NCBI RefSeq assembly: GCF_048388525.1
Contig: NZ_DBGCTQ010000092.1
Span: forward strand, 442-64,441
Length of the DNA: 64,000 nucleotides
Direction: 5' to 3'
Source: Allofournierella sp.
Lineage (GTDB): Bacteria > Bacillota > Clostridia > Oscillospirales > Ruminococcaceae
How positions within the stretch are numbered: position 1 is the first letter of the stretch; each line of letters begins with the position of its first letter. The notes beneath the pieces are model-generated. The model did no database searches and had not been told where the DNA came from. It worked only from the letters and a program-made list of their open reading frames with translations. A program made the translations under genes and the position numbers. Of this stretch, positions 591-45,576 are shown in pieces.

Positions 591-610
591 AAGCGGCCGC
601 GTGCCGCGCG

Positions 611-7580: not shown

Positions 7581-7662
7581 TTTCTATCACCATAAAATTG
7601 GTCGTTGTTCACCTTATTCCAATAAGACGTAGTGAAACAGGCCAAGTACCAATAAACAGGTA

Positions 7663-7962
7663 CTAATCTACATTGCTCTGTTTAACACTGTCATATGCCA
7701 CAGATGTCGGGAAATACTTTGAGCTTAATCTGAAATTATAAGTAGTCCCCGATTCATCGGAAAAGCCAACAATATAATCATCATATACGGTTGAAAACTC
7801 AATGTTTTTATATGTCAGGCCAATTCCACTGTAATTTTCGTTCACATAACTTATCGCAGTCTGTTTTCCAATCATTTTTGGAATTACACCAGTAATCCAT
7901 AACGCTATAATCAATATGATGATGGCTACAATTCCGACGAATACATATTTGCTTTTATTCAC
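7663..7962 (-). CDS. small N-terminally membrane-anchored protein, hypothetical
   Basis: 99 aa with a single N-terminal helix (FVGIVAIIILIIALWITGVI) and then a soluble beta-rich region. The upstream sequence includes GGAGGAAAG. Confidence 0.5.
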   Translation of the reverse strand: MNKSKYVFVGIVAIIILIIALWITGVIPKMIGKQTAISYVNENYSGIGLTYKNIEFSTVYDDYIVGFSDESGTTYNFRLSSKYFPTSVAYDSVKQSNVD

Positions 7963-8050
7963 AGGTCTTTCCTCCGTAAACTAAGATGTGTTGGTGTGCC
8001 TTTTCCGCCTAAGATGCGCTTTTCCAACAAGGCCGTTTTTTTGCAAATCG

Positions 8051-8890
8051 TTACCATTTATCATAATGGATCTTCCCCGGTTCCCAGCGGTGGCATAATT
8101 CCTTTTCCTCATCCGGCCAGCCAAACGCGATCACCGAGGCAGGCTCCAGCTTGGAGGGAAGTTCCAATAGATCAATCAGCAGCTTCCGCCAATCAGAGCT
8201 TGACGCCACACCGCACCAGACGCCTCCCAGGCCCAGGCCATGAATGCCCAGCAGGATATTCTGCGTGGTAGCGGCGCAGTCCGCATACAAAAACTCCTTT
8301 ATGCCCTCTATATTTTTATCACCACAAACGACGATGGCACCCGCGGCCTCCGCAAGCATAGCCGCATGTGAATTTCGTGAGGCAAGTTCTGCCAGAAGCT
8401 GTCTGTTCCTGATCACGATAAAATGATAAGGCCGCTTATTTTGGGCCGTAGGCGCATACAACCCGCAGCACAGCATTGCCGTGACCAACTCGTCTCCGAC
8501 TGGCCTGGAGGTAAATTTTCGTATGCTTTGACGCGTCTTGATTGCGGTCAGTACATCCATCCCACTGCTGACGGAGGCAGGTTCTTCCTGTTTGTTACCG
8601 GCAGGCTCTATATCTTCGAGTGCCATGACAACCCGCGCGGTCATGGCCTGCCCGTCAAATCCGATGGACTTTTGCAGCCCCTTATCTATGACCATCAGAA
8701 ATTTTCCGCCGCCACGGGATAGTAATTTGCTGCGGTACTTGACACCATTGATCGTACCGCTGACATAGATCGTGCCCTTCGGTTTACAAAACCGCTCCCT
8801 TGCATGGAACGGAATTTCAAAAAAGGTCAGTCTGCCTGCATTGTCCTTTTGAATAAGCGCCTCAAATATTTCCATTGCGATTCCCTCCAT
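8051..8890 (-). CDS. DUF1905-like domain fused to a nitroreductase-family domain
   Basis: The N-terminal part (...FFEIPFHARERFCKPKGTIYVSGTINGVKYRSKLLSRGGGKFLMV) is YdeI/DUF1905-like. The C-terminal part (IKTRQSIRKFTSRPV...APTAQNKRPYHFIVI...) is nitroreductase-like. Confidence 0.7.
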   Translation of the reverse strand: MEGIAMEIFEALIQKDNAGRLTFFEIPFHARERFCKPKGTIYVSGTINGVKYRSKLLSRGGGKFLMVIDKGLQKSIGFDGQAMTARVVMALEDIEPAGNKQEEPASVSSGMDVLTAIKTRQSIRKFTSRPVGDELVTAMLCCGLYAPTAQNKRPYHFIVIRNRQLLAELASRNSHAAMLAEAAGAIVVCGDKNIEGIKEFLYADCAATTQNILLGIHGLGLGGVWCGVASSSDWRKLLIDLLELPSKLEPASVIAFGWPDEEKELCHRWEPGKIHYDKW

Positions 8891-8900
8891 CCTGGCCGGC

Positions 8901-9311
8901 CTATGTGCATTTGACCGTTAAAAGCGTTTGAATATCATCAAGCTGCTCCCTGCATGTGACGCGGTAGTGAAGCCACCCGCCGTCGCCGCAGGGATACTTA
9001 TGGTCGATCTGTTCCCGCGTCCCCGTTTGCACCTTGCCATAGATGGAATCAAACTGCTTGTTTGACAGCCTCACCATCACGGTAAACGCGCTCTCCTCGG
9101 CGAAAACATGACAGATCAGCTTTTTGTTTTTCCGATGGACGACTCCCCAGCCATATCCGTTCCCATAGGGAAATGTGACCGCCTGCGTTGTTCCAAATGT
9201 GCCGGACAGCCACTCATTCAACTGTGTAAACAACTCCGCACAGGCCCCGCAGTACGCCATCATCTGCGCAATGGTCGGTTCTTCTTGTTTGTTCAACATT
9301 CTCTCGTACAT
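8901..9311 (-). CDS. DUF3788-like protein; family name from memory, unverified
   Basis: ATG at 9311 lies 5 nt after GGAGA. MYERMLNKQEEPTIAQMMAYCG...FPYGNGYGWGVVHRKNKKLICHVFAEESAFTVMVRL. The track ORF extends to 9377, but that start lacks an RBS. Confidence 0.55.
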   Translation of the reverse strand: MYERMLNKQEEPTIAQMMAYCGACAELFTQLNEWLSGTFGTTQAVTFPYGNGYGWGVVHRKNKKLICHVFAEESAFTVMVRLSNKQFDSIYGKVQTGTREQIDHKYPCGDGGWLHYRVTCREQLDDIQTLLTVKCT

Positions 9312-9403
9312 ACAATTCTCCACTTGTTTCCATAGCCACAATCGTTCCTCCAAATTGGGATTTGCCGCTCCGTTCAATTCCCCTACAAACTGGAAGTTCC
9401 CGG

Positions 9404-10162
9404 CTAAATAAATTGTGTAAATGCGTCTGCTTTCGTTACACCATCCACATGAATATATACGTCCATATAGGTCACTTCACCTTTTTTATATACATGCTCA
9501 AAGCAGCTAAGAATATTTTCCTGCTGTTTCCCCTTAAAGTTGTTTGCCTGAAGATATTCCATTATCCTCTTATACGCAGTCGGAATTCTTTCAAAAGCCT
9601 GAACAAAAGGTTCTTTAATTGTTATTACCGCATAATCCGCTTCAATATTTTCTGAATACTGTACTCCCGGACATTCCGTTTCAAATCTCTCCGGGATCAC
9701 ATAAGCAGCTGCATATCCGCGCATTCCGAATCTGTTTTGTTGTTCCGGAGATACATAAGGAAAATCCCATCCAATAAGCTTTGCCTCCGGACAAGCAGCT
9801 CTAAGCCCACTGTTTATGGCCCATGTTTCCATATATCCGTTTACGTCAGTTTCCGGATTCGGAGAAATAATAACGTAACTTGCCATCTTAAAGGCGGCCA
9901 CTCTTTTTATCTGTATGTCTGAATATATCTCACTTTGTGCAGAAAGCTTCTCTTTCACAAGTGTATCCAATTTACAGGAAAAGACTGAACACATATCAAC
10001 CAGCTTCGCAAGCTCCGGAATCACTTCATCCGTTTCCCATCTTGATACCGTCTGTCTGGTAACACCCATTCTTTCTGCAAGCTGTTCCTGGGTTAATTTT
10101 TTTTGTTTTCTCAAATAACTGATGTTTGTCCCTAAGCTCATATTTTTCATCTCCACATGCAT
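9404..10162 (-). CDS. XRE-family HTH regulator with a GyrI-like effector-binding domain
   Basis: LGTNISYLRKQKKLTQEQLAERMGVTRQTVSRWE is an HTH_3 motif. The C-terminal approximately 170 aa look like a GyrI/SOUL-type small-molecule-binding fold. The true start may be the internal ATG at 10150 or 10141. Confidence 0.8.
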   Translation of the reverse strand: MHVEMKNMSLGTNISYLRKQKKLTQEQLAERMGVTRQTVSRWETDEVIPELAKLVDMCSVFSCKLDTLVKEKLSAQSEIYSDIQIKRVAAFKMASYVIISPNPETDVNGYMETWAINSGLRAACPEAKLIGWDFPYVSPEQQNRFGMRGYAAAYVIPERFETECPGVQYSENIEADYAVITIKEPFVQAFERIPTAYKRIMEYLQANNFKGKQQENILSCFEHVYKKGEVTYMDVYIHVDGVTKADAFTQFI

Positions 10163-10597
10163 TTTTTCAGCATTCTAACATGCTTATTTTCAGTCAGTAC
10201 ACTGTCCTTTCTGTATGTAATTATGACATACGGAGCGTTGCAAAACCACCAACCCATGTGCGCTTTTTCACATTTTAATGCAACGCCGCATGTTGCATTA
10301 AAATAAAAATTCCCACAACCACAGCTTCCGCATTCTTCGTCCGCCTGCTTGAATGCTGATACTAAAACGTCTTTATCAGCTTTTCCGTCACTGCCCCAAT
10401 GCCTCCGTACAAAAACACTGTTCCGCAAAGCCGGTGGGATTCCCATTGTCAAAAATCCATTCCGATACGGTTTCCATCGTCAGCTCAAAGAACACTTCAT
10501 CCGACTGAATAAATCCATCGTCTTTTCCGAACGAATACGGGTAACGCGCCATATAAGCCGCTTTGATTTCTGTGTTTCCATCGTCCACGAAACACAA
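10147..10597 (-). pseudogene. hypothetical Cys-rich protein, apparently split by a frameshift in a homopolymer
   Basis: ORFs 10388..10597 and 10147..10452 overlap in different frames around an A5/T5 run at 10411..10415. Removing one base joins them into one ORF of about 160 aa. Confidence 0.3.
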
Positions 10598-10599
10598 AT

Positions 10600-11085
10600 T
10601 TAACGCATATATGCTTTCACTGCCTTGAGCGGTATTCCCATCCTCTCAGAAATCTCTTCCATTGTCATTCCTTCATCCGAAAACCGCTTGCAAACGGCTT
10701 TCATATTTTCGCCAACCTCTATGATGTGATGATCGGGATCATAAAAGCGCACGACTCTTTGTCCCCATGCGTGCTCCATAACCGGATGGACATATTCAAC
10801 CGTGTTGATAGAACTAAGTTTATCCAGAAATTGATCAAAATCACCTTCTTCAAAATAGACTTCAACATCATTCCCTTGATAGGAGATTTCTTTGCCCACA
10901 ACCCCTTTCCAGCTTTCCTCAGTTTTATATTCCGCCTTTCTGTAAAAGGTGCCCATACCCGTGTATAAGTTTTCTTTACGAATGGAGAGATGTGATTTCT
11001 CCGTGGGCCGCCCATCGTAAAGACTATTGTAGCAATGTTTCAATAGCAACGCTACCTCCGCGGACAATTTCAATGCGGTTTGCAT
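10600..11085 (-). CDS. VOC (glyoxalase/bleomycin-resistance) family protein with a short helical tail
   Basis: ...VEVYFEEGDFDQFLDKL...VHPVMEHAWGQRVVRFYDPDHHIIEVGE is typical of the VOC beta-alpha-beta-beta-beta module. Confidence 0.65.
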   Translation of the reverse strand: MQTALKLSAEVALLLKHCYNSLYDGRPTEKSHLSIRKENLYTGMGTFYRKAEYKTEESWKGVVGKEISYQGNDVEVYFEEGDFDQFLDKLSSINTVEYVHPVMEHAWGQRVVRFYDPDHHIIEVGENMKAVCKRFSDEGMTMEEISERMGIPLKAVKAYMR

Positions 11086-11211
11086 AGTATTTTCCCAATA
11101 AGGTGATTAAGTCATTGTTACGGTTTTCTGTTTGGACGCTTTCAATCATCACTGTTGCCGGAGAATAATCAATAACAGAAACATGAAATGTCAATAAAAT
11201 TATGTGATAAG

Positions 11212-13454: not shown

Positions 13455-15243
13455 GAGGGGCAGCCCCTTTCAGCGCGGTGCGCAGGCTGTGGCACAAAAA
13501 GCCCGCGCAGGTGGCGAAGGCCTGGCCGGTGGCGGCCTCGCCGGTCACCTCGTGGATGCTTTCGCAGACGATGCCGTTGTCCATGGAGGCTTTGCGCAGG
13601 ATGGCAAGGCTGTGCCCGACCCGGCCGCACAGCAGGCTGTTGGCCACGCTGAGGATCCAGGGATGGGGCGCGTGGGGGCAGCCGATCTCGGCAATGGGGC
13701 TGGCGGCAAAGCTGTATTTGTATTCCGGCGAGCGGATCATGGCCACGGTGTTCTGGTAGACCTCATCCTGCGGGCTGCAAAAGCCCAGATACGGCAGCAG
13801 CTGCAGGCTGCCCGGGGGCTCGTCGTACACATCGTGGCCGCCGGAAAGATCCACCGACCAGGCGTAATAGGGCCTGCCCGCCGCATCGGTTTTTACGCAG
13901 TGGGCCCCGATGGCGGCGCGCACCTGCCCGGCCTGGCACGCGAGGTCCTGCCGGCCGGGCAGCAGCTTGGCCAGGGCGCGCAGGCCGCGCCACACCAGCA
14001 CGTTATCGTAGGTGAGGTAGGGGTGGACCCGCTCGTCGTCGGTGGGCTGCAAAAAGGTCTCGTACAGGTCGGCCTGCGAGGCCTTTTTGGTGGCCAGCTT
14101 TTGCAGCACCTCCCCGAGCCCCTTCTGCACCTGGGGCTCGGCGGCAAAGGCCGTGTCTCCGGTGGCGCCGACATACCGCTCCAGCGCCAGCACAGGGGCC
14201 ATCAGCTCATCCAGCTCAAACCCGGGTTCCAGCACCGTGCCGTCGATAAAGCGGGAGTGAACCCCCAGGTTGCGCCGCTGGCGGCCGAACACATATTCCA
14301 GCATGCGGCGGGCGAGCGGCGGGTCGGCGTCCAGAATGGCGGGAAAGCTCCAAAACAGGCTGTCCCGGTCCCAATAGGCGGCGCTCACGTAGTAGCGGGG
14401 GCTGCGGCTGGTGACGAGCACCAGCTCCTCGGTGTCCAGCGTGACGCCGGTGGAGTAAAAAATGCAGAAGAACAGGTTTAAATTGTAAAGCCGGGTGAGA
14501 GCCTCGTCGCCCAAATCGAGAGTGCGCGCCCCCAGCCAGGCCAGGGTGCGGGCCAGCTCGGCCTCGTAGCCCTGGCGCAGCATCTCCTTGGCACTGGTGG
14601 CGGCGGCCACCTCCTCAAAGCCGAGCCCCCAATACAGGGTGAGCGCGGCCTCTTGGCCCGGGGCGAGGGTGAGATCGCACCCGATCTCATATTGCACCGC
14701 GCCGTTTTCCGCTGTATGGGTGGAACGGCAGGGCCGGTCGGCCATGGGGGCAAAGCAGAACATGGGCACGCCGCAGCGCAGATCGAACACGAGCCCCCCG
14801 TTCCAGGGGCTCTGGAAGCAGTGCTTGACGCCGTCGATGGGCTTGTCCTCGTTGACGCAGTGCCAGCTTTCGGCCCATTCCCCTTTTACACCGAGGGTGA
14901 GAGAGAGGGGAGCGGCGGTGGGATTGTGAATTTCCAGCCGGAGGGCGAAGCCGCGCTCCTCCACCGGGGCGAGATATGTTCCGGTGAGCGCCGCGGCCCC
15001 CGCCCGGGCATGAAATTGGGGCACCCAATGGCCCAGCCTCTGCCAGCGCAGCCCGCACAGGGGCGCCTGCCCGCCCTCTGTTTCCACGAAGGGCAGGATC
15101 AGCGGCAGGCCGCCGCCCCGCACGTCCACAAGGCCCTTGTAATTCATGTGCAGAAAGGTAAAATCTTCGATGCCGGCGGTGGCCTGGTCGATGCGGGGCA
15201 GGGAGACCATCTCGTTGCCGGTGGGCAGATATCGCTCTGTCAT
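13447..15243 (-). CDS. (alpha/alpha)6-barrel glycoside-hydrolase-like protein, family unassigned (distantly GH125/GH63-like by eye)
   Basis: 598 aa with ATG after AGAGGAA. SAAYWDRDSLFWSFPAIL, FELDELMAPVLALERY, TYDNVLVWRGL and YDEPPGSLQLLPYLGF resemble six-hairpin glycosidases. Its stop overlaps the GH65 start by 8 nt. Confidence 0.55.
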   Translation of the reverse strand: MTERYLPTGNEMVSLPRIDQATAGIEDFTFLHMNYKGLVDVRGGGLPLILPFVETEGGQAPLCGLRWQRLGHWVPQFHARAGAAALTGTYLAPVEERGFALRLEIHNPTAAPLSLTLGVKGEWAESWHCVNEDKPIDGVKHCFQSPWNGGLVFDLRCGVPMFCFAPMADRPCRSTHTAENGAVQYEIGCDLTLAPGQEAALTLYWGLGFEEVAAATSAKEMLRQGYEAELARTLAWLGARTLDLGDEALTRLYNLNLFFCIFYSTGVTLDTEELVLVTSRSPRYYVSAAYWDRDSLFWSFPAILDADPPLARRMLEYVFGRQRRNLGVHSRFIDGTVLEPGFELDELMAPVLALERYVGATGDTAFAAEPQVQKGLGEVLQKLATKKASQADLYETFLQPTDDERVHPYLTYDNVLVWRGLRALAKLLPGRQDLACQAGQVRAAIGAHCVKTDAAGRPYYAWSVDLSGGHDVYDEPPGSLQLLPYLGFCSPQDEVYQNTVAMIRSPEYKYSFAASPIAEIGCPHAPHPWILSVANSLLCGRVGHSLAILRKASMDNGIVCESIHEVTGEAATGQAFATCAGFLCHSLRTALKGAAPHA

Positions 15244-15274
15244 AGCATTTCCTCTTCTTTAAATTGTATAAGTG

Positions 15275-15290
15275 AAACGATTAAACGATT
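15275..15290. promoter_or_regulatory. tandem AAACGATT AAACGATT motif, a candidate LacI-family operator for the minus-strand GH operon
   Basis: Two direct copies of the 8-mer that forms the palindrome at 15406..15421. They lie just downstream of the minus-strand promoter. Confidence 0.35.
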
Positions 15291-15299
15291 TATAAGTCA

Positions 15300-15327
15300 A
15301 ATATAACATAAAAATCGTGAGTGTCAA
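15300..15327 (-). promoter_or_regulatory. sigma70-type promoter for the 598-aa hydrolase/GH65 operon
   Basis: On the minus strand: TTGACA (15322..15327), 16-nt spacer, TATATT (15300..15305). Confidence 0.4.
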
Positions 15328-15357
15328 CACTATTTTGCACAAAATTTTAAAAATGTG

Positions 15358-15386
15358 TTGACATATACTGCTGTTATGAGTATGAT
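15358..15386 (+). promoter_or_regulatory. sigma70-type promoter for the LacI-family gene
   Basis: TTGACA (15358..15363), 17-nt spacer, TATGAT (15381..15386). Confidence 0.45.
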
Positions 15387-15405
15387 AAAACTGTAATCAT
15401 GAGTT

Positions 15406-15421
15406 AATCGTTTAAACGATT
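15406..15421. promoter_or_regulatory. perfect 16-bp palindrome, a candidate LacI-family operator
   Basis: AATCGTTTAAACGATT is its own reverse complement. It sits between the -10 element and the RBS of the LacI-family gene. Confidence 0.45.
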
Positions 15422-15452
15422 TAAGCCCTCCCGAGGAAAGGAAGTCAGCGCG

Positions 15453-16475
15453 ATGTCCAAGCGAGCGACCTTAAAAGACGTAGCCGCCAAAGCGAGGGTG
15501 AGCCCGGCCACGGTCTCCTACGTTTTAAACGGCAAGCGCACCATTTCACGGCAGACCAAGGAGCGGGTGCGCCAGGCGATCGAGGAGCTGGGCTATGTGC
15601 CCGACCTGAGCGCCCGCAGCCTTTCCAGCCGCGACTCCAAGCTTATCGGGGTGGTGGTGCCCCAAACCGAGCCGGGCAGCAAGCTGATGCTGCAGAACAA
15701 TTTTTACAGCGAGATTGTGGGCAGCATCGAGTATCATGCGCGCCAGCACGGGTACCACGTGATCATCTCGGCCACCGATGTGAGCGAGAGCTACCTTACC
15801 CTGGCAAAGGAGCGCAACCTGGACGGGATCATTGTGATTGGCATGTACCCGGACGAGTTTTACCAGCAGATGAAAAAGACCCAGATCCCCATCGTGCTGA
15901 TCGACAGCTACTGCAACGACCACTATTACCACAGCGTGCGCATCGACGACGCCTATGGCAGCTACCTTGCCACCCGCCATGTTTTGGAATACGGCCACAA
16001 GCGCATCGCCTTTTTCTGCGGCCTCATCAAGGAGAACGGCGTGATCAAAAAGCGGCTGACCGGCTACCGGCAGGCGCTGGAGGAGCGGGGGATCGCCTAC
16101 GACCCGGCGCTGGTGTTTGAGGGCAAGATCGACTACGAGAGCGGGGTGCAGCTGGCCCGCCAGCTGGCGCGTTCGGCCACAGAGGCCACCGCCGTGGTGG
16201 CCACCGCCGACATTTTGGCGGTTGGCGCGATGAAGGGCTTTTACGACGAGGGACTGCACGTGCCCGACGACATCTCGATCATAGGCTTTGACGACCTGGA
16301 GCTGGCCCAATATATGACGCCCGGGCTTTCCACCATCAAACAGGAGATCCCGCTGAAGGGCGAGCGCGCGGTGGAGCTGCTGCTGGACAGCATCAACGAC
16401 GAGACCCTCACAAAGCACGAGCTGGTTTTGCCGGTGAGCCTGATCACACGCGGGTCGGTAAAACGCCTTGGGTAA
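15453..16475 (+). CDS. LacI-family transcriptional regulator
   Basis: MSKRATLKDVAAKARVSPATVSYVLNG is the LacI HTH. The rest is a periplasmic-binding-protein-like sugar-binding core. 340 aa. Confidence 0.92.
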   Translation: MSKRATLKDVAAKARVSPATVSYVLNGKRTISRQTKERVRQAIEELGYVPDLSARSLSSRDSKLIGVVVPQTEPGSKLMLQNNFYSEIVGSIEYHARQHGYHVIISATDVSESYLTLAKERNLDGIIVIGMYPDEFYQQMKKTQIPIVLIDSYCNDHYYHSVRIDDAYGSYLATRHVLEYGHKRIAFFCGLIKENGVIKKRLTGYRQALEERGIAYDPALVFEGKIDYESGVQLARQLARSATEATAVVATADILAVGAMKGFYDEGLHVPDDISIIGFDDLELAQYMTPGLSTIKQEIPLKGERAVELLLDSINDETLTKHELVLPVSLITRGSVKRLG

Positions 16476-16630
16476 AAAATAAAAGGGGGAATGAAAAAAG
16501 CGGCCCACACCCGCCTGGACAGCACGGTGAGCCGCGGCAAAAAACGCCACTGGAAGCAGCCTTTTTTGCTTAAATTAAGTGTAAGCGAAAAAGGCCGAAA
16601 AAGCAACCACTGAATATAAGGAGGACGACC

Positions 16631-17950
16631 ATGAAAAAACGCTTTTCCATTCTCGCAGCGATTTTGGCCTTTTCGCTTGTGTTTACCGCCTGCGGCGGCG
16701 CTCCTGCCAGCGCGCCCGCCGGCACGGCCGGCAGCTCCGGCAGCCAGACTGCTGCGCAGGCGGCCCAGGCGGAGCCGGTCACCATCACCTTTGAGCAGTT
16801 CTCCGGCTCGGGCGACAACGAAGCCTACTTACAGCAGATGATCGACGCATACACCGCCCAAAACCCGCATGTGACCATCAAGCTGCAATCTTATGGTTAC
16901 GACGATTATTTTCAGCAGCTCACCGCCAAGGTATCGGGCGGGCAGGCCCCGGACGTGTTTGAACTGAACTACGAAAACTTTGTTTCCTACGCCAAAAAGG
17001 GCGCGCTGATGCCGCTGGACGAGATCATTGCCAGTCAGGGCATCGATACCGGGCGCTACAACAAAATGGCCCTTGCGGCCTTCAACGCCGACGGCAAGCA
17101 ATACGGCGTACCCAACAGCTTTTCCAACGTGGTGCTGATCTACAACAAGGACCTGTTCGACCAGGCCAAGGCAGACTACCCCACCGACGATTGGACCTGG
17201 GAGGACGCCATGGCCGCCGCCGAAAAGATCCGCGCGTTGGGCGACGACATCTTTGGCTACTACCACCCCATCTCCTTCAATGAGTTTTATAAAACGGTAA
17301 AACAGAACGGCGGCAGCCTGTTCAATGGGGACTACACCGAATTTACCATGACCGACCCCAAAAATGTGGAGACCCTGCAATATCTGGTGGATATGCAGCT
17401 GAAAACCAACGTGATGCCCACCCCCGCGCAGATGGGCGGCATGGGCGACTGGGATTTGTTCAAGTCCGGCCGGCTGGGCATGATCGTGACCGGCATTTGG
17501 GCCTTCCCCGATTACACCGCCAACTGCGACTTTAACTGGGACATCGCGGTGGAGCCCGGCCACACCCAAAAGGCCACCCACTTCTTCTCCAACGGCTATG
17601 TGATCTCCAAGGACAGCAAGGCAGCCGAGGAGGCGGCCAAGTTCATCGCCTTTATCTCGTCCGACAAGGAGGCCACTCAGATCCGCCTGGACGCCGCCTG
17701 GGAGCTGCCCCCGGTGATCGATGAAGCCATCATCAGCCAGTACAAGGCCGTTACCCCACCCGACAACCGGGAGGCCGTGTTCAAGAGCCTGGACTACCTG
17801 GTGACCCCGCCGGTGATCACCCAATTTGCCGAATTGCAGGACATTGTGGGCCGCCATTTGAGCGAGGCGGCCGCGGGCACCGTGACCCCCGAAGAGGCCC
17901 TGCAGAACATGCAGGCCGAGTGCGAGAGCAAGATCGATCTGAGCAAATAA
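16631..17950 (+). CDS. ABC sugar transporter, extracellular solute-binding lipoprotein
   Basis: Signal peptide with lipobox LVFTAC-GG and the SBP family 1 layout. AGGAGG RBS. 439 aa. Confidence 0.9.
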   Translation: MKKRFSILAAILAFSLVFTACGGAPASAPAGTAGSSGSQTAAQAAQAEPVTITFEQFSGSGDNEAYLQQMIDAYTAQNPHVTIKLQSYGYDDYFQQLTAKVSGGQAPDVFELNYENFVSYAKKGALMPLDEIIASQGIDTGRYNKMALAAFNADGKQYGVPNSFSNVVLIYNKDLFDQAKADYPTDDWTWEDAMAAAEKIRALGDDIFGYYHPISFNEFYKTVKQNGGSLFNGDYTEFTMTDPKNVETLQYLVDMQLKTNVMPTPAQMGGMGDWDLFKSGRLGMIVTGIWAFPDYTANCDFNWDIAVEPGHTQKATHFFSNGYVISKDSKAAEEAAKFIAFISSDKEATQIRLDAAWELPPVIDEAIISQYKAVTPPDNREAVFKSLDYLVTPPVITQFAELQDIVGRHLSEAAAGTVTPEEALQNMQAECESKIDLSK

Positions 17951-17962
17951 GCGACCCACAGG

Positions 17963-17991
17963 GGAGGGCAGGCGGCGCCTGCCCTCCTTTT
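17963..17991 (+). terminator. intra-operon hairpin with a T-run after the binding-protein gene
   Basis: GGAGGGCAGG-CGGCG-CCTGCCCTCC followed by TTTT, immediately before the permease RBS. Confidence 0.5.
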
Positions 17992-18009
17992 AAGAAGGAG
18001 GAACCGCCG

Positions 18010-18930
18010 GTGAAACATTCCCGCCAGGCAGGCTGGAAAATCGCCCTGCCCTTTTTGGCTCCCAGCCTTGTCGGCTTTGCGGTGTTCAGCATTCTGCCCA
18101 TGATCACCCTGTTGGGCATCAGCGTTACCGATTGGGACGGCCTCAGTGAGCTTACCCTGTTTTCGGATTTTTCCGGTTTTATGGGGCGGTTTTTCGTGGG
18201 GCTGAAAAACTATATGGAAATATTTACCACAAAAGAATTGTATCAGGTGCTGGGAAACACCCTGGGCTTTGTGGCGCTTTACATACCCCTTATGCTTTTG
18301 GCCGCCCTGGCAGTGGCCCTGGTGCTGAGCAGCAAGGTGCGGGGCGTGGGCTTTTTCCGGGTGGTGTATTACATCCCGGTGATCACCTCCTGGGTGGCGG
18401 GTTCGCTGATCTGGAAATGGGTCCTCAGCCCGGAATACGGCATCATCAACGAAATTTTGCGGGTCTTTGGCATCCAGGGGCCCAGCTGGCTGCAAAGCCC
18501 GGTGTGGGCCATGCCGGCCATCGTGCTGGCCTCGGTGTGGAAGGACATGGGCTATTTTGGCCTGATGCTGATGGCCGGCCTGCAAAGCATCGACCAGGGG
18601 TACTACGAGGCCGCCCAGATCGACGGGGCGGGCAAGCTGAAGCAGTTTTTCCGCATCACCCTGCCGCTGCTCACCCCCACCCTGTTCTTTGTAATGATTA
18701 TCAGCCTGATCTCCTCGTTCCAGCTGTTTCCCCAGGTGATGATCATGACGCCGGACGGCGGCCCCTCCGGGGCCACCATGGTGATGGTGGAGCGCATTTA
18801 CAAATACGGCTTCAAATATTACGAGATGGGCTACGCCTCGGCCTACAGCTGGGTGCTGTTCGTGATCCTGCTGGCGCTTACCGGCGTGCAGATGAAGCTT
18901 CAAAACAAGTGGGTGAACTATGATGAATGA
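18010..18930 (+). CDS. ABC sugar transporter permease (MalF/UgpA-like)
   Basis: GTG at 18010 follows AAGGAGG. Six predicted helices and the EAA loop EAAQIDGAGKLKQFFRITLP. The track ORF start at 17920 overlaps the upstream gene and is less likely. Confidence 0.85.
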   Translation: MKHSRQAGWKIALPFLAPSLVGFAVFSILPMITLLGISVTDWDGLSELTLFSDFSGFMGRFFVGLKNYMEIFTTKELYQVLGNTLGFVALYIPLMLLAALAVALVLSSKVRGVGFFRVVYYIPVITSWVAGSLIWKWVLSPEYGIINEILRVFGIQGPSWLQSPVWAMPAIVLASVWKDMGYFGLMLMAGLQSIDQGYYEAAQIDGAGKLKQFFRITLPLLTPTLFFVMIISLISSFQLFPQVMIMTPDGGPSGATMVMVERIYKYGFKYYEMGYASAYSWVLFVILLALTGVQMKLQNKWVNYDE

Positions 18931-40257: not shown

Positions 40258-40372
40258 AAGTGCGCAGAGACCTGACAGGAAAGAAAAGGCGGGAGGCTGG
40301 CGCCGCGGTTTGCAGAGCGCGGCGGCCGCCGGAGCGCCGCAGGAAGCTGTGGGAAAGGGGGAATGAGGCCTG

Positions 40373-41905
40373 ATGAAGCGTATCATGCGCCCTGCGGCGC
40401 AGACAAGCGCCGGGCCGACGGTGGAGTTTCTGCCGGGAGAGGTTTGGTTTGGCGGCGCGGTGACCGACGGTATTTGCCAGCCTTATACCGCGCAGAGCTG
40501 CCGTACCCTGGAGCTGCGCTGCAACCGCACACCGAACCAGGCCATGCCGCTGCTGGTCTCGACCAAAGGGCGGTGGCTGTGGAACGGCGCTGGGATGCTG
40601 GTGCGGATGGGCAGCGGATGCATTTGGTGCAGCGCCGGCACCCTGGCGGGGCAGGAGCAGGGGGGCCTGCGCGGGGCGTACCTTGGCGCAATGCGGCGGT
40701 TTTTCCCCTTTTGCGGGGCGGGTCCCTCGGAAAAGCTGAGGGAGGCCCCGGTATACAACACCTGGATCGAACTGACCTTTCACCAGACCCAGCAGGCGGT
40801 GCTGCGGTATGCCGGGGACATTCTGGCCCACGGCCTGCCCGCCGGGGTGCTGATGATCGACGACGGCTGGAGCGACTATTATGGAAAATGGAGCTTTTCC
40901 GCCGAAAGGTTCCCCAGCCCCGGCGCCCTGCTGGCCGAGCTGCGGCGGCTGGGGTTTGCGGTGATGCTGTGGGTATGCCCGTTTATCACGCCGGACACCC
41001 TGGAATACCGGGAGCTGGAGCAGAAGGGGCTGCTGGTAAAAAACGGCCAGGGCGAGGTACACATCGCCCACTGGTGGAACGGCTGGTCGGCCATTTTGGA
41101 TATGACCCGCCCCCAGGCATGCGCCTGGCTGAAAGAGCGGCTGGACGCCCTTGCGGCCCTGGGTGTGGAGGGCTTCAAGTTTGACGGGGGCGACAGCCTG
41201 TACTACCCCGAGGGCGGCGAGGAGAGCCCCGACGCGCACTCGCGGGCCTGGGCGCGCTTTGGAGAACAATATGCCCTGAACGAATTCCGGGTGACCGCCG
41301 GCGCGGGGGGGCGGCCGCTTTTGCAGCGGCTGTGCGACAAGGACCACAGCTGGGGCGAAACCGGGCTTGCGGCGCTGGTGCCCGATGCGCTGGTGCAGGG
41401 CCTTACCGGGCACCCGTTCCTGTGCCCGGACATGATCGGCGGAGGGGAGTACCGGAATTTTTACGGCCAGGGCGCATTGGACGGGGAGCTGTTCGTGCGG
41501 TGGGCCGAAGCGGCCTGCCTGATGCCGGTGATGCAGTTTTCGGCCGCGCCCTGGCGGGTGTTGGGGAAGCGGGACTTTGCGGCAGTGCTGCGCGCCGTGG
41601 AGACCCGCGCCCGCTTTTTGCCCGCGCTGCGCACGGCGTGGGAGCACTGTGCCCGCACAGGCGAACCCATCCTGCGGCCTATGGCGTACGAATTTCCCAA
41701 TGAGCCGTGCGATGCGGTCACGGACCAGTTCATGCTGGGGGAAGAGCTGCTGGTGGCGCCTCTGCTGCGCAAGGGCGCGGAGGAGAGAACGGTGTATCTT
41801 CCCAAGGGCGTGTGGAAGCAAAACGCGCAAAGTATTGCGAGCGGCGGCGCATGGCAGGTTTTTGATGCACAGCAGGGCCCGCTGGTGTTCGAGCGGGGAA
41901 ATTGA
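40373..41905 (+). CDS. clan GH-D glycosidase (GH31-like, lacking the usual N-terminal domain)
   Basis: GVLMIDDGWSDYYGKWSF, MLWVCPFITPDT, GVEGFKFDGGDS and DMIGGGEY fit a (beta/alpha)8 GH31/GH36-type catalytic core. Confidence 0.65.
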   Translation: MKRIMRPAAQTSAGPTVEFLPGEVWFGGAVTDGICQPYTAQSCRTLELRCNRTPNQAMPLLVSTKGRWLWNGAGMLVRMGSGCIWCSAGTLAGQEQGGLRGAYLGAMRRFFPFCGAGPSEKLREAPVYNTWIELTFHQTQQAVLRYAGDILAHGLPAGVLMIDDGWSDYYGKWSFSAERFPSPGALLAELRRLGFAVMLWVCPFITPDTLEYRELEQKGLLVKNGQGEVHIAHWWNGWSAILDMTRPQACAWLKERLDALAALGVEGFKFDGGDSLYYPEGGEESPDAHSRAWARFGEQYALNEFRVTAGAGGRPLLQRLCDKDHSWGETGLAALVPDALVQGLTGHPFLCPDMIGGGEYRNFYGQGALDGELFVRWAEAACLMPVMQFSAAPWRVLGKRDFAAVLRAVETRARFLPALRTAWEHCARTGEPILRPMAYEFPNEPCDAVTDQFMLGEELLVAPLLRKGAEERTVYLPKGVWKQNAQSIASGGAWQVFDAQQGPLVFERGN

Positions 41906-41931
41906 GCCGGAAGAAAAAATGAAAAATAAGT

Positions 41932-41981
41932 GGGCAGGGGCCCGCCGCTCGCTTAAAAAACAGCGCGGCGGGCCCCTGCCC
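41932..41981 (+). terminator. GC-rich terminator closing the sugar locus; left edge of the AT-rich island
   Basis: GGGCAGGGGCCCGCCGC, 16-nt loop, GCGGCGGGCCCCTGCCC (17-bp perfect stem), then TTATTT. Confidence 0.6.
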
Positions 41982-42182
41982 TTATTTGAGAAGCATACGG
42001 CCTTTTACCGCTGCTTTTCCGCTGGGTCTATTAAAAATTCGGGAAATTATTTCAGCTATTACTGCCCAGGAATAATTGAAGCGAATTTTTATCCTCAAAA
42101 ATGAATGTAAAATGGACTTGCAATAAAGGGGCGACACTTAGATGTCTTATTTTTGAACGCGAATCCAGCCCTCTATTGACTC

Positions 42183-45119
42183 TTACAGAGCTTTTGTGAA
42201 ACCACAGTCTGGGAAAGAGATGCAACCATAAAAATCCCCGTTCACGCCTCCCCTTTTTACCAGTAGACCCTTGCAGAATTCGCATCTCATTGCCGGATCA
42301 TCGACCATCTTAATTTTCTTATAATAATTCAGATCAAGCAGTTCGGAAACCTCTTTCTGCATCTTTTTACTTACCATACGCTGCATTTGTTCCGTTGTGG
42401 ATCTGTGACTCAACAAATTTAGGCTGCCTTGCCAAACCAGAGTGTCATCAATCAGTATTACCTTTTCGTGCATGTTTTTGCGAATCCGTACGATGACTCC
42501 GTCCCTTCGCAAATTATCGATCAAGGCTCGGGCTTTCTTTTGATAAAGCCTTACGTGTTCGCTTACCGACCGAGTATATACGACCACCTCTCCGCCTGCT
42601 TCGATGATTCCCTTAAATACAGGCAGTAAAACTTCAATCCGGCCTTCTCGGACAAAGGGACAGAAAATGATCACTCGTTTACTGGCATTTTTTAAATCCG
42701 GAATCATTTTGGCCCAGAAGCTATTTTGATTATATTGACCCAGTTCTTCAACTGGTACTCCTTTACTCAACCGCTTGATTTCGTTTTCTTCATCTGTAGT
42801 TTGGAAACCAATTCCCAATTCGGAAACGGATAAGGTTGCTCCATGTTGATGCAGAATATCCAGAAAATCCTTGAAAATATGCCCTTTGAAATTCTGTTGT
42901 ACGAATTTCACATTTGCCAATAAAATGAACTTGGATTTTGCCCGTGTGACCGCGACATTCAACATGAGCGGAGCGCTCTGGTTTTTTCTGCTACCTTCGT
43001 CAAAAAAGAACCATTTTGCATCCGTGCCTTCGCTCTCTACAGAATCGCAGATGATAACATCTTTTTCGCCACCCTGAAAACTATGTACCGTATTTACTTC
43101 GATTCGTTTTCTTTCCGGGCTGTTTTTCCCCAAAGATTCATCTAAAATATCACTGATTAATTCCTTTTGTGGACGATACGGAACGACTATTCCAACTGTG
43201 ATTTCTTTCCTGTCCTGTGTTTCGTTCGCTAAATAGTTCTGCGCCATGGCCGCTGCCAGTGCTGCATGATACAAATTGCACCGACTTTGCCCATTAGGCC
43301 CTCGATTCATCCAGGGAGCGCCCTCTGAAGTATCCACCAAAATCAACGGCTGATCCTGCACCCAACGATCGGATAAAACCCTGGTCTTCGTATTGTCCCC
43401 GCTTTGTAAAATACCTCCATAAAACAATTTGTTGGGGATCGAAGCAATGGCAGGGTTCATACGGTATTGAATGCTCAACGGTTTCACGAATTCGCTGCTT
43501 CTGGCCTTGCCGACCGAGTTCATTCCAATAATGTCGAAAAAACTTCTATTCTGCCAATTTTTCAGCAATTCAGTTTTACTTTGTGTGCCGATTGGAGGAA
43601 GCTGTAAGAAATCCCCAATGAAGGTGCAGGATGAACTGATCAGGCCCATTGCGAAAAACATAGGCAGTAATGGAGCCATACTGACCTCGTCGATGAACAA
43701 CACGTCATATTGTTGTGCCTGCAAATCGGTAGACATATACGTCATCGACAGCGTAGCGCCGATTACCACTGCCTCTTCGATCACCTGCTTGCGCACAACA
43801 GCGATCCGTCGCTCCAACTCCCTGATTTGTTGTTCAATCGCATCTGCTTTCTTGGACAGCTCTCCGATTTCTTTTTCTAAGACTGACTCAGTAAGCCCGA
43901 CAATCGTGAGTGCAGACTCGATTTTCAATGCTTCGGATTGTATAACTTTCTCCAAATCGGCAATTTCCAAAGAAAGGGCAGTTTGTTTGCTTTGCAGCAA
44001 TTTGATAGCATTTCGCCTTTCTTCACAGGAGTTTTCCACTTTATAAATCTTTTGCCTTGCTAATAAAATTTTCTTCTTTGTACGCCCGGTTTGAAACATT
44101 TTGGTTTCCAGCCGGGATAGTTCCGCTTTCAAAGATTGTAACGTCGTTTCATCCTGCCCAATCTCTGCCATATATTGCGTGAGTTCTTTCTTCTGCTGAT
44201 TGTATATTGCTTTTTTCTCTGATAAATCACCCTGCTTTTGCCGGTAGCCATCCCGCATAGATTGTATTTTCAAAAAATCGGAGAGCTTGTCCTGCATCGG
44301 CAGCAATTTTGTTTCAAGACCTTCTATTTGAACGCTAAGCTCCTCCGATCTTACCCGAACAATCTCATCCAAGGACAGCATTGGATACTTATCCAGTTGT
44401 GAAACGCCCATTCGAACCAAATGGCCTTCTGTATAAACAGGCTCATTATGGAGAAGATCTGCCAGTTCTTCCATTGCACCATCCACCGCAGTATTTGCGT
44501 GAGAAAGGAGCAGGACGCGACGCCCCCGCTTTATTTGTTCATTGATCGCTATCGCTATTGTGTGTGTTTTTCCCGTGCCCGGAGGCCCCCAAATGATGGC
44601 GTCACCCTGAAATGAACGCACTACAGCGGCTTTCTGGTATTCGTTTATCCGACTATATTCTGCTAAGTCCGGTAAAGATTTAGTCCCGGTCTGCAACTGA
44701 CCATTAAACAGTCGTGCCGCGATCGTATACCGCTGATCGGCGTTATGCAGGTTCTCCTGAAAACATTGCAGAAGTTTCTTAGGGAGAGCGGTACGGTCGA
44801 GAAAGAGTTTTATTTCTTGGCTCAAAGATAGAGTGTGAAATGTTTTTAAAAGAATTCGGCAGTTGTCAGATGAGATATACTCACAATCAAATTGGGCAGA
44901 ACTCGTTATTATTTTGTACACAACATTGTCCTGAGGGAAAAATGGCTGCTCTGTGTCAAATTGGTAGGTGTTGTACCCATTTTTGCTTTCACAGAGTATA
45001 CCATTCATCAAGATAATATTGTTATCTTTTGATTGTTTCAGCTCCTCAAGCTCGACTTTTAAGACTTCAATAAATTCCTGAATATAGTCGTTGGGAGTTA
45101 TCGGACCTTTTTCTGTCAT
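42183..45119 (-). CDS. SF1 (Upf1/DNA2-like, AAA_11/AAA_12-type) helicase fused to a single-HKD PLD-family nuclease domain and a C-terminal topoisomerase-type zinc ribbon
   Basis: 978 aa. Helicase motifs: GPPGTGKT, FIDEVSM, GDFLQLPP, QYRM, VHSFQGGEKDVII, LNVAVTRAK. PLD motif: HEKVILIDDTLVWQGSLN (HxK-x4-D-x6-GSxN). Terminal ribbon: CEFC...YGCISFPDC. AAGGTG RBS. Confidence 0.85.
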   Translation of the reverse strand: MTEKGPITPNDYIQEFIEVLKVELEELKQSKDNNIILMNGILCESKNGYNTYQFDTEQPFFPQDNVVYKIITSSAQFDCEYISSDNCRILLKTFHTLSLSQEIKLFLDRTALPKKLLQCFQENLHNADQRYTIAARLFNGQLQTGTKSLPDLAEYSRINEYQKAAVVRSFQGDAIIWGPPGTGKTHTIAIAINEQIKRGRRVLLLSHANTAVDGAMEELADLLHNEPVYTEGHLVRMGVSQLDKYPMLSLDEIVRVRSEELSVQIEGLETKLLPMQDKLSDFLKIQSMRDGYRQKQGDLSEKKAIYNQQKKELTQYMAEIGQDETTLQSLKAELSRLETKMFQTGRTKKKILLARQKIYKVENSCEERRNAIKLLQSKQTALSLEIADLEKVIQSEALKIESALTIVGLTESVLEKEIGELSKKADAIEQQIRELERRIAVVRKQVIEEAVVIGATLSMTYMSTDLQAQQYDVLFIDEVSMAPLLPMFFAMGLISSSCTFIGDFLQLPPIGTQSKTELLKNWQNRSFFDIIGMNSVGKARSSEFVKPLSIQYRMNPAIASIPNKLFYGGILQSGDNTKTRVLSDRWVQDQPLILVDTSEGAPWMNRGPNGQSRCNLYHAALAAAMAQNYLANETQDRKEITVGIVVPYRPQKELISDILDESLGKNSPERKRIEVNTVHSFQGGEKDVIICDSVESEGTDAKWFFFDEGSRKNQSAPLMLNVAVTRAKSKFILLANVKFVQQNFKGHIFKDFLDILHQHGATLSVSELGIGFQTTDEENEIKRLSKGVPVEELGQYNQNSFWAKMIPDLKNASKRVIIFCPFVREGRIEVLLPVFKGIIEAGGEVVVYTRSVSEHVRLYQKKARALIDNLRRDGVIVRIRKNMHEKVILIDDTLVWQGSLNLLSHRSTTEQMQRMVSKKMQKEVSELLDLNYYKKIKMVDDPAMRCEFCKGLLVKRGGVNGDFYGCISFPDCGFTKAL

Positions 45120-45190
45120 GCTTGGTCACCTTTTGTCGTTTGAAATGATATCGAAAGCGCAGAAATTGAACTCTTTTAGTATATATTGTA

Positions 45191-45219
45191 ATTTTACCAA
45201 ATTTTAACTGAAATTTCAA
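45191..45219 (-). promoter_or_regulatory. sigma70-type promoter of the helicase-nuclease gene
   Basis: On the minus strand: TTGAAA (45214..45219), 17-nt spacer, TAAAAT (45191..45196), about 70 nt upstream of the ATG. Confidence 0.45.
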
Positions 45220-45303
45220 CCTGTATCCGGCAGGCTTCGGATAGCGATCTCTGCTAGGATCTGGATGTACGATCAACCTAACAAAAAGAGTTGATATAAA
45301 AAC

Positions 45304-45338
45304 AAAGAATCTGTTGTGTATCGTGCAACAGATTCTTT
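45304..45338 (-). terminator. second hairpin downstream of tRNA-Leu
   Basis: AAAGAATCTGTTG, 9-nt loop, CAACAGATTCTTT (13-bp stem). Followed on the minus strand by GTTTTTAT. Confidence 0.45.
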
Positions 45339-45432
45339 GATTTGGGGGAAGCGTTGACATAAAAGATATCTCTTGGAGAAAAAAGACAAACCTTCAAAAA
45401 TGGCTTAAATGCTAGGCCTATAGCATAGAAAA

Positions 45433-45482
45433 AGAGACCGAAATTTGGATATCTCACTTTTGAGTTCCAAATTTCGGTCTCT
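45433..45482 (-). terminator. terminator immediately after tRNA-Leu
   Basis: AGAGACCGAAATTTGGA, 16-nt loop, TCCAAATTTCGGTCTCT (17-bp perfect stem), flanked by A and T runs. Confidence 0.65.
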
Positions 45483-45489
45483 TTTCACA

Positions 45490-45576
45490 TGGTGCCGCTG
45501 GCCGGGGTCGAACCGGCACGATGTTGCCACCGGCAGATTTTGAGTCTGCTGCGTCTGCCAATTCCGCCACAGCGGC
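45490..45576 (-). tRNA. tRNA-Leu (anticodon CAA), class II with a long variable arm and encoded CCA
   Basis: Manual cloverleaf: acceptor GCCGCTG/CAGCGGC, anticodon stem GCAGA/TCTGC with loop CTCAAAA, variable arm CGGTGGCAACATCGT, T arm GCCGG-TTCGACC-CCGGC, then A-CCA. Confidence 0.9.

Follow-up and report, generated by a model that had tools for sequence, protein, structure and literature searches.

The DNA analysed here, referred to below as the window, is a 64,000-nucleotide stretch of a contig from Allofournierella sp., a gut bacterium of the Oscillospiraceae, and the element of interest within it is a minus-strand gene at 42183..45119, lying between a GH31 gene and a tRNA-Leu(CAA) gene. 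The gene is complete, with an ATG start and 978 codons followed by a stop codon, and its product is identical to WP_418667758.1, an Allofournierella sp. protein with the RefSeq name 'AAA domain-containing protein'. An earlier note, made from the letters of the DNA, had correctly placed a 978-aa open reading frame (ORF) at this position, its strand not being given, and had proposed a candidate single-gene defence system in which a superfamily 1 (SF1) helicase is joined to a phospholipase D (PLD)-type nuclease. Sequence comparisons identify the protein as a divergent relative of Mokosh type II, a defence system whose domain logic is already known.

The helicase-nuclease and its chromosomal slot

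Each of the SF1 motifs listed in the earlier note was found at the residue given there (Table 1), and VHSFQGGE is present among the RecA2 motifs alongside QYRM and LNVAVTRAK. In a Pfam scan, all four domains exceeded their gathering cut-offs: AAA_11 and AAA_12 over the helicase, PLDc_2 over the C-terminal single-HKD domain, which gives the PLD assignment profile support, and the topoisomerase-type Zn_ribbon_Top1, which confirmed the four-cysteine (Cys4) ribbon at the end of the chain. In an alignment of 50 full-length homologues, Walker A, D477-E478 of motif II and the Q/R motifs were invariant, as were K886, D891, G898, S899 and N901 of the PLD signature, while H884 was conserved in at least 90%. 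The matches of this domain to MkoB, MkoC and DpdK suggest that its HKD chemistry is that of a nuclease rather than of a lipid enzyme.

The window gene was compared with three homologous genes by the Nei-Gojobori method. The overall ratio of nonsynonymous to synonymous substitution rates (dN/dS, omega) was 0.15-0.20, which excludes a chance ORF and points to a coding gene under selection. By domain, omega was 0.06-0.19 for the PLD lobe, 0.08-0.10 for the ribbon and 0.34-0.39 for the coiled coil at aa 259-449, the fastest-evolving part, which evolves 2-3 times faster than the catalytic domains. These ratios show a functional gene, each domain of which is under purifying selection.

The full-length protein was modelled using AlphaFold2 with the family alignment, yielding a mean pLDDT (predicted local distance difference test) of 85.4. 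When the model was searched against the PDB using Foldseek, SETX was the best match (E 4.5e-31), IGHMBP2 was matched with a TMt of 0.76 over ~800 columns, and UPF1, Dna2 (E 1e-24), Aquarius and ZNFX1 followed, the top hits ranging from 4e-31 to 4e-18. For SETX, IGHMBP2 and UPF1, E values of 4e-31 to 1e-25 were obtained at a sequence identity of just 16-18%, with full-length alignments of ~800 columns. A sequence search of the PDB was concordant, again finding Upf1-like helicases nearest, and a Foldseek search of viral structures returned only generic Upf1-like and nidovirus helicases.

In Upf1 structures, a stalk and a barrel termed 1B precede motif I, and the 1C 'prong' lies between motifs Ia and II. 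A comparable layout is predicted for the window protein. Residues 1-157, which the earlier note could not assign, are modelled as a helix (9-28), a six-strand beta-barrel (34-108) and further helices (111-138). When modelled alone (pLDDT 87), this domain had a whole-domain Foldseek match only to IGHMBP2 4b3g_A (TMq 0.52, 156 columns, E just 8e-3); nothing in the PDB was better than E = 1e-3, and the remaining matches were generic beta-barrels. The topology is that of an Upf1-type stalk followed by a 1B barrel, the barrel assignment being moderately supported, and the domain can be assigned on the basis of AlphaFold2, Foldseek and the description of the CnuH defence helicases, which carry an OB-fold/stalk ahead of RecA1 and 'a large helical insertion' after Walker A in which coiled coils are predicted (Bell et al., eLife 2024, PMC11090510). 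The coiled-coil insert seen by the note appears in the model as three very long helices (259-338, 345-407 and 411-449) between motifs Ia and II, and profile scans gave weak SMC/JetC-type matches over this stretch. Its existence therefore stands, but its standing as a distinguishing novelty does not, since E. coli MkoC and CnuH have counterparts; both the N-terminal domain and the insert are family features. With two RecA domains, the SF1 motifs, a stalk/barrel and a 1C insert, the modelled protein falls within the Upf1-like SF1B helicase family. Behind the helicase, the model has one PLD lobe per chain (aa 794-935).

The surroundings of the gene were compared with conspecific Allofournierella contigs that carry a near-identical flanking sigma factor of the same 90%-identity cluster (loci L166-L170). 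Homology ends at 41912, just beyond the GH31 stop at 41905, and resumes exactly at 45490, at the 3' end of tRNA-Leu(CAA). The helicase gene is the sole cargo of the intervening slot; no second plausible gene was found in it, only short overlapping ORFs. The conspecific contigs have one of two other cargoes there, the first ~4 kb long with a TetR gene and four HXXEE-family genes, the second extending to ~10 kb and also including a radical-SAM enzyme, a Nif11-type peptide, C39-peptidase ABC exporters and an extra sigma factor. The interval from GH31 to tRNA-Leu(CAA) is a strain-variable hotspot in Allofournierella. The exact helicase protein occurs on 3-4 contigs, while one variant of the flanking sigma factor occurs on 379. 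The window gene is an island gene and not a core gene: homologues lie in variable islands, and the same conspecific locus holds other cargo, rather than the gene being part of a syntenic core. An integrase and att-like direct repeats were sought in the slot and at the island ends, and none were found. An empty-site search through GH31 neighbours in metagenomes had shown only that synteny ends at the GH31 end; it was the sigma factor that gave the decisive loci.

The gene has a GC content of 43% and a third-codon-position GC (GC3) of 0.46, against ~65% and 0.8-0.89 in most neighbouring host genes. The DNA that it has in common with an 89%-identical homologue in another genomic context (locus L005) is 90% identical, starts exactly at the -35 hexamer and stops ~40 nt past the helicase stop codon; what moves is therefore, in essence, the promoter and the gene. 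The description of a horizontally acquired-looking gene with its own promoter is thus borne out by the foreign GC and GC3, by a promoter-like site recognised by consensus only, and by the start of the shared DNA at the -35 hexamer. The island leader upstream of the helicase promoter also contains an 18-bp AT-rich hairpin with a T-run (45299-45343, minus strand), which may be a further terminator that shields the gene from transcription running on from the tRNA. A search of the slot and leader against Rfam found only the tRNA, and this hairpin belongs to no Rfam family.

Table 1. Positions of the motifs, domains and flanking elements of the helicase-nuclease gene (nt, window positions; aa, residues of the 978-aa protein)
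Feature	nt	aa	Strand	Score or basis
Walker A GPPGTGKT	44565-44588	178-185	-	Motif
Motif II FIDEVSM		475-481	-	Motif
Motif III GDFLQLPP		502-509	-	Motif
QYRM		551-554	-	RecA2 motif
VHSFQGGEKDVII		678-690	-	Helicase motif
LNVAVTRAK		720-728	-	RecA2 motif
Full PLD signature HEKVILIDDTLVWQGSLN, HxK(x)4D(x)6GSxN	42417-42470	884-901	-	Motif
Cys4 ribbon CEFC ... CISFPDC		946-949 ... 966-972	-	Motif
AAA_11		158-510		Pfam, 99.5 bits
AAA_12		542-737		Pfam, 116 bits
PLDc_2		806-922		Pfam, 30.6 bits (cut-off 27)
Zn_ribbon_Top1		945-977		Pfam, 36.1 bits (cut-off 32)
Predicted N-terminal stalk and 1B barrel	44649..45119	1-157	-	AlphaFold2, Foldseek
RecA1, first part (Walker A, motif Ia)	44346..44648	158-258	-	Pfam, motifs, AlphaFold2
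Predicted helical coiled-coil insert at Upf1 1C ('prong') position	43773..44345	259-449	-	AlphaFold2
Rest of RecA1 and RecA2	42840..43772	450-760	-	Pfam, motifs, Foldseek
Predicted flexible helicase-nuclease linker	42741..42839	761-793	-	pLDDT <50 at 771-791
Predicted single-lobe PLD (HKD) nuclease domain	42315..42740	794-935	-	PLDc_2, MkoC/MkoB matches, YjhR/MkoC alignment
Cys4 zinc ribbon, topoisomerase-I type	42186..42314	936-978	-	Pfam match 945-977
Strain-variable cargo slot, 3.6 kb, low GC	41913..45489		.	Conspecific comparison, GC profile
tRNA-Leu(CAA), 3' end forming right-hand slot boundary	45490..45576		-	tRNA call
Promoter-like site TTGAAA-17 nt-TAAAAT, extended -10 TG	45191..45219		-	Consensus match only
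Shine-Dalgarno-like GGTGA, 6 nt before ATG	45126..45130		-	Sequence
Perfect 20-bp hairpin and T-run just downstream of tRNA-Leu, likely tRNA terminator	45430..45485		-	Inside variable segment
Perfect 17-bp GC-rich hairpin, likely bidirectional terminator	41932..41981		.	Common to GH31 gene (+) and helicase gene (-)

Relation to Mokosh and to other helicase-nuclease systems

Mokosh systems combine a COG1112/Upf1-like helicase with a PLD nuclease, and in type II a single gene encodes both, the helicase being N-terminal and the PLD domain C-terminal; mutation of Walker A or of the PLD site abolishes Mokosh defence (Millman 2022 preprint). E. coli yjhR has been treated as a helicase-PLD fusion and likened to MOV10L1/PLD6 (Cury et al.). 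E. coli Mokosh II has been reported to be a 132-kDa monomer in solution by mass photometry and to protect only against a single-stranded DNA (ssDNA) phage, evasion of Mokosh I by T-even phages has been reported to depend on DNA glucosylation, and Mokosh as a whole is called incompletely characterised in a 2026 review. The Mokosh domain logic that the earlier note recognised is present in the window protein: a single polypeptide has a Upf1-like/COG1112 SF1 helicase ahead of a single-HKD PLD nuclease, as in type II. Intact Walker A and HKD residues, an extended helix-rich insert separating motif Ia from motif II, as in E. coli MkoC, and a solitary gene in a tRNA-adjacent island are further points of likeness.

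To place the protein relative to Mokosh, the profiles of the PADLOC hidden Markov model library were scanned. The best match was to MkoA (2e-54, aa 151-758), and a second MkoA profile matched aa 106-758 at 2.5e-43, with room for the insert. The MkoC profile (PDLC03924, 1136 positions) matched at 9e-42 and aligned aa 553-922 onto positions 778-1123 of 1136 only, and MkoB gave a weak match on the PLD domain. E. coli MkoC itself (WP_000344108.1, 1171 aa, ~132 kDa) covers positions 1-1135 of the MkoC profile. Full-length similarity to this profile therefore fails in the window protein, which scores 141 bits against 1685 bits for E. coli MkoC and has MkoA as its top match. By BLASTP, aa 612-904 of the window protein align with 850-1134 of E. 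coli MkoC at 26% identity (E 3e-16), with an additional match at the P-loop. K-12 YjhR aligns likewise, and the similarity to YjhR and MkoC (24-26% identity) is collinear from helicase motif V through the HKD motif.

Outside this shared region the two proteins differ. The N-terminal region spans 157 aa in the window protein and ~270 aa in E. coli MkoC, with no detectable similarity between them. In E. coli MkoC, Walker A lies at 295 and motif II at 694, and part of the intervening ~400 aa is rich in helix and poor in Pro/Gly, as judged by composition only; the corresponding distance in the window protein is ~290 aa, of which 191 form the helical insert. E. coli MkoC ends right after its PLD domain, and neither it nor YjhR has the C-terminal Top1-type ribbon of the window protein. 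The earlier note had regarded this ribbon as lying outside the described core. It is indeed absent from E. coli MkoC, but it is the majority state in the clade to which the window protein belongs.

This clade was delineated by clustering the shared RecA2-PLD region (~395 aa) of 129 proteins. Three clean groups were obtained, consisting of E. coli-type MkoC, a group of 1200-1340-aa proteins and a group of ~900-1100-aa proteins that includes the window protein. E. coli-type MkoC is set apart from the other two by the first division, and mean identity between the window group and E. coli-type MkoC in the shared region is 22%. Because the full-length MkoC profile test failed, we place the protein in a zinc-ribbon clade of Mokosh-II-like proteins and not in MkoC proper. 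The suggestion of a distinct variant rather than a plain Mokosh homologue is upheld by the partial MkoC match and by the separate clade. As for Mokosh I, the helicase part matches MkoA best and the PLD domain matches MkoB weakly, but in the window protein helicase and nuclease are fused, no Ser/Thr kinase domain was found by Pfam, and no MkoB gene lies next to it.

The full-length E. coli MkoC gene used for comparison was recovered by a DNA search of complete E. coli genomes. The yjhR locus had been tried as a source and yielded truncated copies only, and searching proteins with the YjhR fragment as query gave nothing but fragments, none longer than 600 aa. K-12 yjhR (L001:7016-8032) shares ~66% protein identity with E. 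coli MkoC and is an N-terminally truncated remnant; the copies sampled from further strains likewise are truncated or have insertion sequences within them. The 3' part of the E. coli MkoC gene occurs in 868 of 5426 complete E. coli genomes, and in E. coli strain 4/0 the full-length gene directly adjoins tRNA-Phe and a tyrosine integrase gene (L165:1635-7137).

An exhaustive profile search of 1.84 billion representatives showed the family to be large. Among the matches listed, each of at least 700 bits, there are at least 150 clusters at 50% identity, most of which span profile positions ~3 to ~970. In the 150 top clusters listed, Walker A is present in 146, the HKD signature in 138 and a Cys4 motif after the HKD in 96. 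The phyla represented are Bacillota, Planctomycetota, Hydrogenedentota and Actinomycetota. The 1200-1340-aa relatives also have large helix-rich inserts, and in many of them a Cys4 motif follows the HKD. A search of 72,556 plasmids and 50,697 phage records found no full-length relatives; the plasmid matches were mostly other SF1 helicases, several of them annotated as serine/threonine kinases (MkoA-like). No NCBIfam model exceeded its cut-off for the window protein, the matches below cut-off including weak ones to RecD2 and a marginal one to Hhe (E 6.5e-4). Two sets of candidate relatives from a GTDB scan were set aside as other helicase families, namely Bacillus-type proteins (~740-770 aa), which have neither insert nor PLD domain, and Frankiaceae proteins (898 and 1067 aa), which have no insert and no PLD match and keep a zinc ribbon.

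Variation in zinc ribbons and in gene structure was seen within the family. An extra CxxC...CxxC ribbon ends the N-terminal stalk/barrel (~aa 145-190) in P0031, P0036, P0038 and P0041, in P0038 in addition to C-terminal ribbons, and the L017 homologue matches the Top1-type ribbon twice at its C terminus and has another zinc ribbon within the insert. In a Sedimentisphaerales metagenome-assembled genome (L016:9920-13116), the homologue occupies two ORFs, one of 765 aa for the helicase and one of 276 aa for the PLD domain and zinc ribbon, this being either a frameshift/pseudogene or a natural two-gene (type-I-like) arrangement.

Other known systems share parts of this architecture. In CoCoNuT types II and III the helicase is Upf1-like, RecA1 is preceded by an OB-fold/stalk, and Walker A is followed by a large helical insert that is in part coiled coil; helicase and nuclease effector are coupled, with two PLD domains in III-C and a helicase-fused effector in III-B (PMC11090510). 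The effector of the window protein, in contrast, is a single fused PLD lobe with a zinc ribbon and not a winged helix-turn-helix (wHTH)-HEPN module, and none of the partners McrB/McrC (CnuB/CnuC), TerY-P, Hsp70-like or wHTH-HEPN was found by Pfam in the window or in nine metagenome contexts. Membership in CoCoNuT is rejected because the McrBC partners are lacking. The eukaryotic helicases UPF1, IGHMBP2, SETX/Sen1 and MOV10L1 resemble the window protein in the whole motor fold, the stalk, the barrel and the position of the 1C insert, and MOV10L1 with PLD6/Zucchini also shows a helicase feeding a single-HKD nuclease (Cury et al.), the eukaryotic piRNA helicase/Zucchini pair to which the earlier note had pointed. 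Unlike these, the window protein is bacterial, combines its activities in one chain and has 1C expanded to a ~190-aa coiled coil. Nhi and Hhe are likewise single large defence proteins made of an SF1 helicase and a nuclease, but their nucleases are of the PD-(D/E)xK or Vsr type whereas that of the window protein is a PLD; the PADLOC Nhi profile had no significant match to the window protein, and the NCBIfam Hhe match was the marginal one given above.

Genomic contexts of the homologues

The neighbourhoods of homologues were examined at nine metagenome loci annotated with Pfam and in ten GTDB relatives, 19 contexts in total. Homologues of 80-89% identity to the window protein sit in unrelated contexts, and the family member is always a single gene with differing neighbours, in keeping with the solitary gene that had been described. 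P0004 (80% identity) lies beside Hachiman HamA/HamB, and P0025 (33%) beside type I restriction-modification (R-M) genes, a SAVED/HNH gene, Mrr and Fic. The neighbours of P0014 (50%) are a ResIII helicase gene with a GmrSD_C gene, a serine recombinase and a reverse transcriptase, and P0021 (33%) neighbours GmrSD. Zeta, Fic or HipA toxin-like genes accompany P0001, P0003 and P0026 (89%, 81% and 32%), while the window copy and P0015 (44%) have no defence neighbours. In the ten GTDB relatives, a PADLOC scan of 110 ORFs within 8 kb detected type I R-M, BrxC/PglX/BrxD, DRT-type reverse transcriptase and others. The homologue of Streptomyces flavochromogenes NRRL B-2684 (~25% identity) lies inside a BREX locus (L059:5365-18262), flanked by BrxC (5365-9804, 1327 bits) and PglX (14543-18262, 1672 bits), and a Nanopelagicales homologue lies ~1 kb downstream of HsdR. 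Overall, bona fide defence neighbours were found in at least 6 of the 19 contexts, which supports the expectation that homologues occur near known defence genes, although the count comes with no matched control.

In the P0003 lineage (81%; L075:4477-12957 and L076:1-5840), the gene is accompanied by two small ORFs, one of 38 aa upstream and one of 144 aa downstream. The P0003 island is bounded by tRNA-Ser(CGA) and tRNA-Leu(TAG), and it also contains an ATPase_2/DUF234 gene and a Fic gene.

Two further regions of the window were noted. In relatives with ~97% identical flanks, a 596-aa GH16 and F5/8-type-C gene lies between the GFO/IDH/MocA-family oxidoreductase gene and GH31, where the window holds just 109 nt (40266-40374; compare L168:2323-4113 and L082:5230-7020). 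The GH31 gene is 88% identical and the genes upstream ~97%, which suggests allele replacement by recombination. A second low-GC region (~5500-11200, 34-53% GC) contains short ORFs, including a beta-lactamase fragment, a DUF1905-nitroreductase, DUF3788, an HTH_3 regulator and a glyoxalase/sigma-r4 fragment. The region has the look of accessory DNA in decay, and Pfam detected no defence domains in it.

Proposed function and competing explanations

We consider it probable that the gene encodes a stand-alone anti-phage or anti-mobile-element enzyme of the Mokosh type II kind, from a divergent zinc-ribbon clade. Sequence and model point to an intact, ATP-driven motor of the Upf1 type that is joined by a flexible tether to a single intact HKD lobe, with a Top1-type ribbon behind it. 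The main thrust of the earlier note, a nucleic-acid-sensing helicase coupled to a nuclease effector, is supported to this extent, the defence function being one that we infer from sequence relationships.

Upf1-like SF1B enzymes translocate 5'->3' on single strands. In single-HKD PLD nucleases such as Nuc, Zucchini and BfiI, two lobes make one active site, and the Top1-type ribbon binds ssDNA in topoisomerase I. On the proposed mechanism, the gene would have arrived as the sole cargo of the tRNA-Leu-adjacent hotspot and would be expressed from its own promoter. The enzyme would patrol as an inactive monomer, its ribbon and barrel would hold single-stranded foreign nucleic acid, and the motor, driven by ATP, would translocate 5'->3' along the strand. 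The likeliest substrates would be ssDNA phages' genomes or the ssDNA that arises as an intermediate in replication or recombination, and phage RNA is also possible. Because the HKD lobe is a half site and the E. coli relative is monomeric, cleavage would need two molecules, and the statement that single-HKD nucleases work as dimers must be made conditional here, E. coli Mokosh II being monomeric in solution. Two molecules may meet on the invading nucleic acid, perhaps by way of their coiled coils, and the assembled site would then cut the invader. As the fastest-evolving part, the coiled coil is the obvious candidate for pairing or for recognition of a target or partner, and such a role has been proposed for the coiled coils of CnuH (Bell et al., PMC11090510). 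DNA would be the favoured target, given the Top1-type ribbon, the protection by E. coli Mokosh II against an ssDNA phage only, and the dependence of Mokosh I evasion on glucosylation.

Several points weigh against a defence enzyme that works in this way. The window copy is without defence neighbours, as are two of the nine metagenome contexts, and with no matched control the count of 6 in 19 is supportive and not a formal enrichment. Only 30% of the MkoC profile is matched, so transfer of function from E. coli MkoC rests on distant homology. Among the parts of the mechanism that we infer are dimerisation induced by the target, what the coiled coil does, the polarity and the choice between DNA and RNA. 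Finally, most of the nearest helicases of solved structure act on RNA or on RNA/DNA, and RNA can therefore be argued at least as well as DNA.

This last point leads to RNA surveillance, in which the Upf1-like motor would track phage transcripts and the PLD lobe would cut RNA, as in Zucchini/PLD6-MOV10L1 or the predicted CnuH-CnuE. Its case consists of the nearest solved structures (the RNA helicases SETX/Sen1, IGHMBP2 and UPF1), the MOV10L1/PLD6 parallel, and the CoCoNuT helicases, which have the same OB/stalk and coiled-coil insert and are predicted to target RNA. However, the ribbon at the end of the chain belongs to the type that binds ssDNA in topoisomerase I, E. coli Mokosh II protects only against an ssDNA phage, glucosylation of phage DNA aids evasion of Mokosh I, and the Upf1-like Dna2 and IGHMBP2 act on ssDNA too; RNA surveillance is a serious possibility, if an unlikely one. 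We regard as improbable a modification-dependent, type IV-like restriction enzyme that scans double-stranded DNA and, driven by ATP, cuts modified foreign DNA. It would be an analogue of SauUSI, in which a PLD nuclease and a helicase make up a known restriction architecture that the window protein shares; homologues do lie among R-M, GmrSD and BREX genes, and the glucosylation-sensitive evasion of Mokosh I implies that DNA modification matters to relatives. Neither Pfam nor the AlphaFold2 model revealed an SRA, YTH, EVE or DUF262-type reader, however, the domain order is reversed relative to SauUSI, and an SF1B Upf1-like single-strand translocase is unlike the SF2 motor of that enzyme.

The position at a tRNA 3' end, a classic integration site, could also be explained if the gene served a mobile element, for addiction or exclusion, or as the replication or processing helicase-nuclease of a decayed integrative element at tRNA-Leu. 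Such a role would fit the zeta, Fic or HipA toxin-like genes and the serine recombinase near some homologues, and the place of the E. coli relative next to tRNA-Phe and an integrase. It is nonetheless hard to reconcile with a slot that has no integrase, replication genes or att-like direct repeats, with a helicase gene that moves alone with its promoter only, and with the lack of full-length relatives among the plasmids and phage records searched; moreover, hotspots of this kind are typically occupied by defence islands. We think a selfish gene of this sort has little likelihood. Structural similarity to Dna2 (E 1e-24) and weak RecD2 matches raise the question of a Dna2- or RecD2-like host housekeeping helicase-nuclease for repair or replication. 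Such a role was rejected as highly improbable on the absence of the gene from conspecific strains at the same locus, its foreign base composition and the unrelated contexts of 80-89%-identical homologues, and no NCBIfam family scores above cut-off.

A Mokosh type II-like defence enzyme remains our preferred reading, and what it would mean depends on how far the clade departs from E. coli Mokosh II. If it behaves similarly, the gain is modest, namely one more subfamily. The clade is large and has no family-level name, its domain logic being known. The generic RefSeq name, the lack of an NCBIfam model above cut-off and an MkoC match confined to the C-terminal 30% suggest that inventories of defence in gut Clostridia may under-count it. 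For mechanistic work on Mokosh, the clade offers a shorter form (978 aa) that is confidently modelled (mean pLDDT 85), with a zinc ribbon of a nucleic-acid-binding type that hints at the substrate. It may also be a handy system in which to ask how a half-site PLD nuclease is licensed by a motor of the Upf1 type, a question that bears on MOV10L1-Zucchini. Speculatively, and with considerable doubt, the protein could be a mechanistically distinct single-protein immune enzyme, missed by MkoC-based annotation, whose fast-evolving 'prong' senses foreign ssDNA or pairs on it and so drives target-induced dimerisation of two HKD half-sites that are inactive when apart. If that is true, it would constitute a self-contained switch that assembles a nuclease only on the invader, and would provide the first mechanistic model of Mokosh-like immunity and a bacterial counterpart of MOV10L1-Zucchini.

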